A stretch of 14,944 nt of DNA from a virus (Duplodnaviria; Heunggongvirae; Uroviricota; Caudoviricetes), in IMG/VR virus record IMGVR_UViG_2703718779_000017. One strand, written 5' to 3'. The notes below the pieces were generated by a model. It had not been told where the DNA came from and did no database searches. It saw only the letters and a list, made by a program, of their open reading frames with translations. The position numbers and the translations under genes were made by a program. Below are positions 6,221-6,444 of this stretch, in pieces; position 1 is the first letter of the stretch; each line of letters opens with the position of its first letter.

Positions 6221-6263
6221 CAATTAAAAACTGTTGACACAAAACAGTTTTTAATTGTAGATT
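6221..6263. promoter_or_regulatory. Operator (OL-like) 14-bp inverted repeat CAATTAAAAACTGT-N9-ACAGTTTTTAATTG with embedded TTGACA; putative PL for the rightward dicB operon
   Basis: Arms at 6221-6234 and 6244-6257 differ from the OR arms at one base. TTGACA at 6233-6238; the -10 is ambiguous (tgtaga/tagatt at 17-19 bp spacing). Confidence 0.55.
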
Positions 6264-6444
6264 ACATACACCAACCACCCACCCCGCCCCACAGAACGCC
6301 GGGCAATACTTCGAGTTACCAAGCAGTGGTCAGGGGGTAAGTAGCCAGCCCGAGGCGTATGAACATGACGGCAGGGTTCAACTTTAATAACTATGCAGCA
6401 GGTTTTTGTTCCGCTACCCGGCGTTAAGGGGAAATGAGGTCAAC

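Follow-up and report, generated by a model that had tools for sequence, protein, structure and literature searches.

In phage lambda, the nutL site lies about 33 nucleotides (nt) from the start of the PL transcript. In phage HK022, the putL RNA starts at +3 of the PL transcript and requires no phage protein (PMC9378689). For lambdoid prophages that lack N, we found no explanation in the literature searched of how transcription passes across the early-left terminators. Here we analyze the leader that stands at the corresponding position, between the left operator and the first early-left gene, in IMG/VR record IMGVR_UViG_2703718779_000017, a 14,944-nt stretch of DNA (hereafter the window) belonging to a lambdoid prophage in E. 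coli of the Shiga-toxigenic type. As judged by comparative sequence analysis, positions 6270-6432 are a copy of a conserved, modular leader RNA at the predicted 5′ end of the Rac-type PL transcript. The leader is real, very common and unannotated, and it belongs with the cis-acting leader RNAs of phage early operons, beside nut and put, without qualifying as either.

The position of this RNA gives it wider significance. It heads an operon that contains kil/dicB, DicF, recombination genes and xis-int, and it is present in ~69% of complete E. coli genomes. The early-left genes are toxic or decide excision, and their silencing makes Rho and NusG essential in K-12 (PMC4150792, PMC5793797). An RNA supported by covariation at this position in the K-12 Rac prophage makes the question of read-through directly testable in the best-studied laboratory strain, and the occurrence of N-less and N-encoding leaders within one family offers a natural series for the decay or replacement of nut sites.

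The leader RNA family and its structure

The 160-nt core of the leader (6273-6432) is found at a coverage of at least 80% in 3,749 of 5,426 complete E. coli genomes, at 6,762 places and in up to seven copies per genome, and in none of 12 listed records does an annotated feature lie under the match. Identity is 87-100% in BLAST comparisons with complete E. coli genomes and phage records. The similarity starts inside a C-rich tract just past the -10 box, at the predicted transcription start, and stops right after 6432; the upstream operators differ between copies, and the first downstream gene varies among DUF1391, YdaG-like and open reading frames (ORFs) of 118, 72 and 101 amino acids. The K-12 copy occupies the racR-ydaG spacer of Rac, and others are carried by several prophages of enterohemorrhagic E. 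coli (EHEC) and by deposited phage genomes including Evi and Tritos; among 50,697 phage records there were no matches outside Rac-type phages. Pattern scans retrieved diverged homologues from Serratia aquatilis, Superficieibacter electus and Candidatus Arsenophonus triatominarum, together with six IMG/VR contigs and 120 metagenome contigs. Rfam 15 gave no match in 6100-6500 even at E values up to 10, the only matches in the window being DicF and a sub-threshold STnc100, and the literature searched held nothing on the racR-ydaG spacer or the ydfA leader. As far as these searches reach, the leader RNA is undescribed.

A few carriers bear unexpected labels. Two metagenome-assembled genomes labelled Candidatus Nanosynbacter and Collinsella (L013 and L014) contain the E. 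coli Rac-type leader, in L013 identical to that of K-12 Rac along the aligned stretch, and this is probably binning contamination. The Actinobacillus phage vB_Apl-pPE4 (L004, PP818812.1; pPE4 below) has a Rac-type immunity region, leader, kil and recE near the E. coli Z1323 type, and its host label looks doubtful.

The conserved 5′ module of the leader consists of a three-segment hairpin (P1) closed by an invariant apical loop and followed by a nearly invariant segment (block 2) that holds a second hairpin (P2) and a Shine-Dalgarno-like GAGG (Table 1). Parts of the loop and of block 2 were fixed by search patterns, and each is invariant in the set found via the other pattern: the loop, included in some patterns, is likewise invariant in the set found without fixing it, and block 2 remains conserved in loci retrieved by patterns that fixed only the loop and AAGTAGCC. 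In alignments, the flanks of the loop are wholly different among lineages yet complementary. The P1 strands pair as GCCGGG/CCAAGC, CCAC/GUGG and CCCC/GGGG in the window, where P1a has two internal mismatches, as GGCUGGA/UCCAGCC, CAG/CUG and GCCC/GGGC in Z1323, as CACGAAG/CUCCGUG and GGCAGAA/UUCUGCC in the Serratia type, and as CAGA/UCUG, GGCAAA/UUUGCC and GCAAC/GUUGC in the Arsenophonus type.

RNAalifold applied to a plain MAFFT alignment missed P1, whose helices fall in different columns from lineage to lineage; P1 was therefore examined by folding each lineage separately, by an N-padded structural alignment and by a covariance model. The three-segment P1 under the invariant loop was recovered in 10 of 12 representatives folded one by one, and its energy relative to shuffled flanks was low in the Serratia type (z = -3.44 and -3.76), in Z1323 (z = -3.97) and, at about -2.1, in the N-encoding (N) type. 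In a hand-made, N-padded structural alignment of 24 sequences (A3), 79.4% of cells formed standard pairs, compared with 27-40% when partners were slid; both partners had changed in 17 of 24 pairs (5-9 in the slid controls); and the covariation score was 0.342 compared with 0.123 in shuffles, none of 500 of which reached the observed value. A covariance model built from A3 (R1) found exactly one strong match per leader, in the window at 6276-6372 with 85.8 bits, and its own alignment of 52 distinct sequences had 79.2% of cells paired (29-48% in controls), 17 of 24 pairs changed on both sides, and a score of 0.244 against at most 0.098. These pairing statistics carry no formal correction for phylogeny, and the sequences are related. 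Taken together, covariation across Escherichia, Serratia, Superficieibacter and Arsenophonus-type phages provides good comparative support for P1 as a predicted structure. P2 (6342-6359) is invariant, so covariation neither supports nor contradicts it.

Several results weigh against the proposed fold. In the window, P1 is no better than shuffled flanks (z = -0.26), and in K-12 z is -1.5; in neither copy is the energy low, and there a C-rich flank facing a G-rich flank pairs in any order. A3, made by hand, and the R1 alignment, made with a model derived from A3, were both fitted to the proposed structure. The fold of the whole leader is no better than shuffles (z = +0.83), and the minimum-energy fold favors a long-range 9-bp pairing between 6295-6303 and 6417-6425 over P1. 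These two segments, AACGCCGGG in the 5′ strand of P1a and CCCGGCGTT in a downstream hairpin described below, are perfectly complementary over 9 nt; their pairing appears limited to E. coli-type copies and may represent an alternative conformation.

A further pairing termed P3, of GACGGC(R)GG with GUUCCGCC, may exist, being seen in single-sequence folds of some types but in differing registers. Other structural candidates were rejected. Pseudoknots that would join the apical loop to block 2 or to the loop of P2 use invariant bases or, by eye, fail in other lineages, and possible hammerhead- or twister-like cores have C in place of the key U in most copies and gave no Rfam match. On inspection the three variable sites of block 2 are spaced by multiples of three, as in a protein gene, yet neither strand is coding: the plus frame lacks a start codon and is interrupted by a stop in phage Evi, and on the minus strand 14 codons lie between stops.

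Two alternatives bear directly on this pattern of conservation. The leader could have no present function and be a decaying N/nut remnant, conserved through recent recombinational spread of Rac-type modules. The 87-100% identity of the E. coli copies, a degenerate boxA-position sequence and the many carriers that are cryptic prophages would agree with this. We nevertheless regard it as the least probable of the readings considered here, since stems that have fully diverged between genera retain the pairing, loop and block 2, the leader is far less variable than the adjacent ydfA in the same sequences (three of 78 leader nt vary, compared with 45 of 150 nt in ydfA), and deposited phage genomes (Evi, Tritos and others) carry it. 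Alternatively, the leader or a processed piece of it might act in trans as a small RNA or sponge, with the invariant loop and block 2 as seeds. Its unpaired segments are invariant at the nucleotide level, as in DicF, several copies (up to seven) can share one genome, and EHEC prophages are rich in regulatory small RNAs (PMC4104026). However, the leader has no terminator or U-tail, PL is repressed in lysogens and Rfam shows no match, making such a role quite improbable; the known prophage anti-sRNAs AgvB and AsxR, which we rejected as identities for the leader, sit at the PR′ moron site.

Relation to nut sites and the mini-ORF

The absence of an N-like antiterminator, noted in the original prediction made from the sequence alone, was borne out. 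No N-like family matched any of 18 ORFs of the window that were compared with PHROGs, or any of the eight that were also compared with Pfam, and the search detected its positive control: two proteins of a related contig (L019) match phrog_271, ‘anti-termination protein N-like’, at E = 3.6e-13 and 3.8e-5, and also PF25694. Nor does a boxA (YGCUCUUUA-like, at most one mismatch) occur in the leader or, in either early operon, on the transcribed strand. Diverged relatives place these absences in context. In Arsenophonus-type contigs the 5′ module is followed by the boxA CGCTCTTTAACA, a lambda-like boxB (UUCGCU-GAAAA-AGCGAA) and the boxC-like GGUGUGUG, with an Arg-rich N-like gene (e.g. MCNFHGYDNARRRRQERRRAKQ...) about 140 nt beyond the boxC-like element; one variant of this type has a different hairpin at boxB. 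The boxA position reads CGTTCTGACA in Serratia, and at the boxA and boxB positions together we find CGUUCUGACA with GCCG-GAAAGA-CGGC or GCCAG-GAAAGA-CUGGC in the Serratia type, CGUUCCGUUA with GCC-GCGUUAA-GGC in Superficieibacter, and (N)GUUCCGCYA with CCC(C)-GGCGUUAA-GGG(G) in the E. coli type (6408-6430 in the window). Across lineages the boxA-position sequence thus drifts from the consensus while the boxB-position stem covaries.

In Arsenophonus-type phages the same 5′ module is immediately followed by a canonical nutL (boxA-boxB-boxC) and an N gene. By this comparison the leader of the window is derived from an N/nut leader but N-less: its boxA has decayed, and a short upstream ORF, the mini-ORF, has been extended through the former nut region. 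The statement that the early-left operon has no clear boxA/boxB pair is correct for function so far as the sequence reveals, but it missed the homology of the hairpin at the boxB position of the relatives. That hairpin has an 8-nt loop that does not resemble known boxB loops, and the mini-ORF overlaps it. The window contains no second hairpin or boxA copy that could serve as nutR, and no second copy of the leader element, analogous to putR, occurs in the window or the 43-kb prophage. In one N-encoding relative (L021), the nutR has a second boxA on the other strand, 7 nt past the cro stop, without a copy of the 5′ module.

The persistence of this hairpin could also mean that GTTCCGC and the CCC-GGCGUUAA-GGG hairpin form a nut site of unrecognised specificity, which binds Nus factors and a non-homologous phage analogue of N. 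Its positional homology to boxA and boxB of the relatives, its covarying stem and its presence in all E. coli-type copies speak for such a site. Yet no protein is constantly linked to it, the early-left genes differing among the window, Rac, Evi and pPE4, and the window has no Arg-rich or N-like ORF. GTTCCGC fits boxA at only about three of seven positions, the rightward operon has neither boxA nor second hairpin, and the mini-ORF passes through the hairpin, whereas in lambda translation through a nut site blocks nut function. We therefore give this reading only a slim chance.

Further observations concern the same region in other contigs and in the window. Four Arsenophonus-type IMG/VR contigs (L018, L019, L020 and L022) have two leader copies 1.7-2.7 kb apart on the same strand. 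In L019 the copies lie at 1416-1522 and 4107-4206, and because each is preceded by a separate repressor gene and followed by a separate nutL and N-like gene, they form tandem immunity/PL-N modules. The second N-like gene of L019 (4423-4756) is split by a frameshift or an assembly error: its Arg-rich N-terminus MCNFHGYDNARRRRHERRR (ATG at 4423) is out of frame with the C-terminal ORF (4436-4756). In the window, the 10-mer CCGGCGTTAA of the leader hairpin (6418-6427) recurs on the 5′ side of a hairpin within the block preceding dicB (7944-7953). K-12 Rac has compensatory changes at the second site, and the identity of the two sites may be due to chance.

The mini-ORF begins within block 2, where GAGG-N9-ATG-A(C/A)G-GC is invariant, and every lineage has an ORF of 4-24 codons at this place or a fusion to the next gene. 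It has 18 codons in K-12 Rac, 6 in Z1323, 4 in Serratia, 6 in Superficieibacter and 7-9 in the N type, where it ends 3-10 nt before the nutL boxA (in L021 likewise a few nt before it). In the window its stop lies 17 nt ahead of the ydfA start. The five length variants of the variable region in E. coli measure 39, 36, 39, 33 and 36 nt, all multiples of three, and types i and iii are separated by two indels, -1 and +1, that together restore the frame. In 55 of 69 DUF1391-linked copies (e.g. L126, L127 and L036) the ATG is in frame with ydfA, which predicts a product of 76-78 amino acids. As a separate observation, phrog_751 in PHROGs is a profile that extends 19 positions beyond the N-terminus of the 50-amino-acid DUF1391 protein as annotated.

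A conserved leader peptide was considered and rejected, as the peptide differs by type, types i and iii read the same nucleotides in different frames, and there is no third-position bias. With no conserved peptide, no codon bias and a leader far less variable than ydfA, the comparison therefore suggests that the RNA, and perhaps its translation as such, is under constraint rather than a protein. About 63 nt (6365-6427) of what had been described as a leader of roughly 185 nt are thus ORF. What the first reading of the sequence overlooked is that the leader is a mosaic module common to thousands of prophages, that part of it is an ORF, and that its 3′ end lines up with the nutL of relatives that encode N.

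The C-rich tract, read-through and a favored mechanism

The original prediction drew attention to a C-rich, G-poor leader whose first tract would load Rho. The tract is real, although it lies 2 nt to the left of the 6271-6294 first given, and it is the most C-rich 24-mer of the window when both strands are considered. Only these first ~24 nt are C-rich: the composition of 6270-6444 is A47 C49 G47 T32, and the leader beyond the tract is G-rich. Sites at which Rho loads (rut) are usually ascribed roughly 60-80 nt of extended, unstructured, C-rich and G-poor RNA. By this measure no rut site was found, the tract being 24 nt long with eight of its bases inside P1; its 5′ third (6270-6280, ~11 nt) is a single-stranded tail in the model, and the remainder forms the 5′ strand of P1c and P1b. 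The C run is specific to the E. coli lineage, other sequence standing there in the Serratia, Superficieibacter and Arsenophonus types. Because the tract is short, pairs in P1, is not conserved and is followed by a G-rich remainder, a function in Rho loading is not supported, and it is probably a structural strand of P1 rather than a free rut site. Rac has one Rho-dependent terminator that has been mapped, trac, and this is located within racR, upstream of the leader (PMC4150792).

These findings also bear on the wider proposal of a Rho-dependent attenuator, in which the C-tract would load Rho and early-left transcription would end unless translation of the mini-ORF or folding of P1 prevented it. 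This proposal draws on the location of the most C-rich 24-mer at the transcript 5′ end, on an excess of C over G in the first ~40 nt of all lineages (judged by eye), and on the leader ORFs that are common in the Rho-dependent attenuators of tna, mgtA and corA. It also agrees with the silencing of Rac kilR by Rho and NusG (PMC4150792, PMC5793797). However, the tract would be mostly paired with 6326-6336 once ~70 nt had been transcribed, and the best transcribed 78-nt window, at the leader 5′ end, has a C/G ratio of 1.47, below the window-wide 90th percentile of 1.77, with 0.65-0.70 downstream. With the C run absent from Arsenophonus-type homologues and the mapped Rac terminator elsewhere, we judge Rho-dependent attenuation improbable.

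Transcription that initiates at PL must cross the DicF terminator to reach dicB, the exonuclease gene, xis and int, as had been noted; the terminator stands ahead of dicB, and Rac-type phages share this order of elements. When RacR is displaced in K-12, Rac genes before and after the pre-kilR terminator are induced 40- to 70-fold (PMC11014345). Read-through without N thus does occur in K-12 Rac, a carrier of the leader. The leader could contribute to it as a put-like antiterminator RNA, with P1, P2 and the invariant unpaired nucleotides binding the elongating RNA polymerase so that it resists the DicF terminator, in place of N. Its position matches that of putL, its covarying stems are combined with invariant unpaired nucleotides, and N is missing from the window. 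Ahead of kil/dicB, all four aligned Rac-type regions (window, Rac, Evi and pPE4) keep an intrinsic terminator (DicF or DicF-like), the distal early-left genes of K-12 Rac are induced as strongly as the proximal ones (PMC11014345), and racR read-through suffices for lethal kilR expression when Rho or NusG fail (PMC4150792, PMC5793797).

The evidence on the other side leads us to consider a put-like antiterminator unlikely, though it is the main rival of the reading we favor. No similarity to the putL region of HK022 was detected: the nhmmer profile and R1 found nothing in the 22-29 kb region that holds PL-putL, the covariance model at E values up to 1. The position agrees, with a predicted start at ~6270 and P1 from 6281. 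The layout differs: one 57-nt three-segment hairpin plus an 18-nt hairpin, compared with the two stem-loops of ~70 nt and the triplex of put, which suppresses terminators in cis through the β′ zinc-binding domain of RNA polymerase. The leader occurs once per phage and is absent from the rightward operon, and Arsenophonus-type relatives combine the module with a full N/nut system, beside which another antiterminator would be superfluous. The 5′ module could instead be a new class of cis-acting RNA that modifies the elongating polymerase, analogous but unrelated to put. We hold this to be similarly unlikely, if marginally more so; if true, it would explain how N-less prophages of the Rac/Qin type read through to kil/dicB, recET, xis and int. 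The suggestion that an RNA-based or unrecognised mechanism operates here has thus fared well in one respect, a conserved structured RNA being present in the leader, and that RNA can be assigned to neither put nor nut. The 327-nt spacer at 7470-7796, which had been suggested as a place to look for put- or nut-like structures, has a fold that does not surpass shuffles (z = -0.29) and no Rfam match; phage Evi has kept this spacer, and pPE4 and Rac have kept part of it.

The reading we favor, though tentatively and short of an even chance, is that the leader is a cis-acting, folded and translated RNA that acts after initiation to keep early-left transcripts intact. P1 and P2 would fold inside the first ~90 nt of the transcript, and a ribosome would enter at GAGG-N9-AUG and translate as far as the first gene, or as far as nutL in the N-encoding relatives. 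The start of the transcript would in this way be base-paired or covered by the ribosome and shielded from Rho and from 5′-end-dependent decay, so that the transcript could run ~6 kb through DicF to int, and a translation-coupled polymerase would be delivered into the early-left operon. Because shielding alone leaves the invariant loop and block 2 unexplained, we propose that they are contacted by a conserved host component, presumably the ribosome, RNA polymerase or a nuclease.

Against this proposal stands first the same invariance: passive shielding needs neither an invariant loop nor an invariant 35-nt block, and part of the function is unaccounted for. The substitutions in the mini-ORF have no codon-position bias, the in-frame counts are inflated by common ancestry, and in Z1323, Serratia and Superficieibacter the mini-ORF has only 4-6 codons and is followed by 60-80 untranslated nt before the first gene. 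Finally, the transcription start, the translation of the mini-ORF and any effects on Rho or stability are all inferred from sequence.

Genomic setting and comparison with known systems

The promoter that precedes the leader agrees with the sigma-70 consensus at 10 of 12 positions and is located within a palindrome whose half-sites are found again at the divergent promoter region (5190-5220 and 5234-5245). This recurrence supports its reading as a repressor-controlled PL with OL, as first proposed, with early-left transcription predicted to start at ~6270. In eight of ten aligned relatives the -35 TTGAC stands at a constant distance from the leader element. Positions 5200-8450 are 100% identical to E. 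coli strain 97-3250, and the prophage is integrated beside yccA. The coordinates of the features are collected in Table 1.

Table 1. Features of the leader and of its surroundings, in window coordinates
Feature	Position	Strand	Description
Helix-turn-helix (HTH) repressor gene	5261-5662	+	
RelB / RelE-ParE toxin-antitoxin pair	5690-6168	+	Between repressor gene and PL
Terminator-like hairpin	6187..6209	+	TCCCTCTTTCGAGGGA and T-run; from scan
Palindromic operator (OL)	6220..6258		39 bp; overlaps -35 hexamer
Promoter PL, sigma-70 type	6234..6263	+	TTGACA (6234-6239), 18 nt, TAGATT (6258-6263)
C-rich tract	6269..6292	+	CACCAACCACCCACCCCGCCCCAC; 17 C, 1 G, 6 A, 0 T in 24 nt
Leader RNA copy	6270-6432	+	Short C/A-rich 5′ tail, P1, P2/block 2, mini-ORF, boxB-position hairpin
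P1, three-segment hairpin	6281..6337	+	P1c 6282-6285/6333-6336; P1b 6289-6292/6326-6329; P1a 6298-6303/6319-6324
Apical loop	6304..6318	+	CAAUACNNCGAGUUA; 15 nt, invariant; only two N positions vary among homologues
Block 2	6338..6372	+	35 nt, nearly invariant: UAAGUAGCCAGCCYGAGGCRUANGAACAUGAMGGC
P2, hairpin	6342-6346 with 6354-6356 and 6358-6359	+	Bulged 6357; within block 2
Shine-Dalgarno-like GAGG	6352-6355	+	Carried by P2
Mini-ORF	6365..6427	+	MTAGFNFNNYAAGFCSATRR*, 20 codons; after invariant GAGG-N9-ATG; stop 6425-6427 in loop of boxB-position hairpin
boxA-position sequence	6408..6416	+	GTTCCGCTA (as RNA GUUCCGCUA); without boxA consensus match
boxB-position hairpin	6417..6430	+	CCC-GGCGUUAA-GGG; stem covaries across lineages
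YdfA-like DUF1391 gene	6445..6597	+	50 amino acids; first annotated early-left gene; own GAGG at 6436-6439
DicF RNA	7797..7856	+	Terminator hairpin and U-run; upstream of dicB

Upstream of PL, the RelB/RelE-ParE pair occupies the spot that lambda uses for rexAB, and the terminator-like hairpin would mark the end of the repressor-RelB/RelE transcription unit. Downstream, the YdfA-like gene is followed by a 216-amino-acid ORF, a minus-strand ORF and the spacer before DicF, which Rfam matches at 7797-7848 with 77 bits; 3′ of DicF lie dicB, a DUF1482 gene, the exonuclease gene, xis and int. The rightward operon, on the minus strand, holds YdaS-like, CII-like YdaT and replication genes. A Q-family antiterminator is encoded outside the window, and the target of Q proteins is the late operon. 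Between the DicF terminator and dicB, the window contains a conserved, RNA-like block (7862-8002) with the sub-threshold Rfam match to STnc100 (37.4 bits against a gathering score of 47). The corresponding block is kept upstream of kil in K-12 Rac, phage Evi and pPE4, and K-12 Rac carries a DicF-like terminator hairpin in its pre-kil region.

Comparison with described systems helps to place the leader. With the attenuators of E. coli tna and of Salmonella mgtA and corA it shares alternative pairings, a short ORF and a C-rich segment that can be sequestered; it differs in having no extended region of C over G, and its C-richness is not conserved in the most distant lineage. The trac element of Rac belongs to the same prophage family and serves the same purpose of controlling the transcription that reaches kil (PMC4150792), but it acts on PRM transcripts within racR, upstream of the PL leader, and is a separate element. 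HK022 putL and the leader are both structured RNAs with which the PL transcript of an N-less lambdoid phage opens, and in both the stems vary while unpaired nucleotides are conserved (PMC9378689). In contrast to putL, the leader shows another architecture and no detectable similarity in sequence or model, and its activity is only putative; where HK022 has both putL and putR, this family has a single copy and coexists with N/nut in its relatives.

The closest correspondence is with lambda nutL/N. In both, the element is the first segment transcribed after OL/PL, downstream of the repressor gene; the window retains the boxB-position hairpin, and distant homologues of the leader have a canonical boxA, a boxB whose loop is GAAAA, the element GGUGUGUG and an Arg-rich N. 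The window differs in having no N homologue and no boxA match, and the leader family as a whole has an additional structured 5′ module of ~100 nt and a mini-ORF upstream of nut. That arrangement in turn recalls cro and nutR of lambda, where a translated ORF stops a few nt before boxA (7 nt for cro in L021, 3-10 nt for the mini-ORF of the N type), with the difference that the leader ORF of the N type is a mini-cistron of 7-9 codons that combines an invariant initiation region with a non-conserved peptide.

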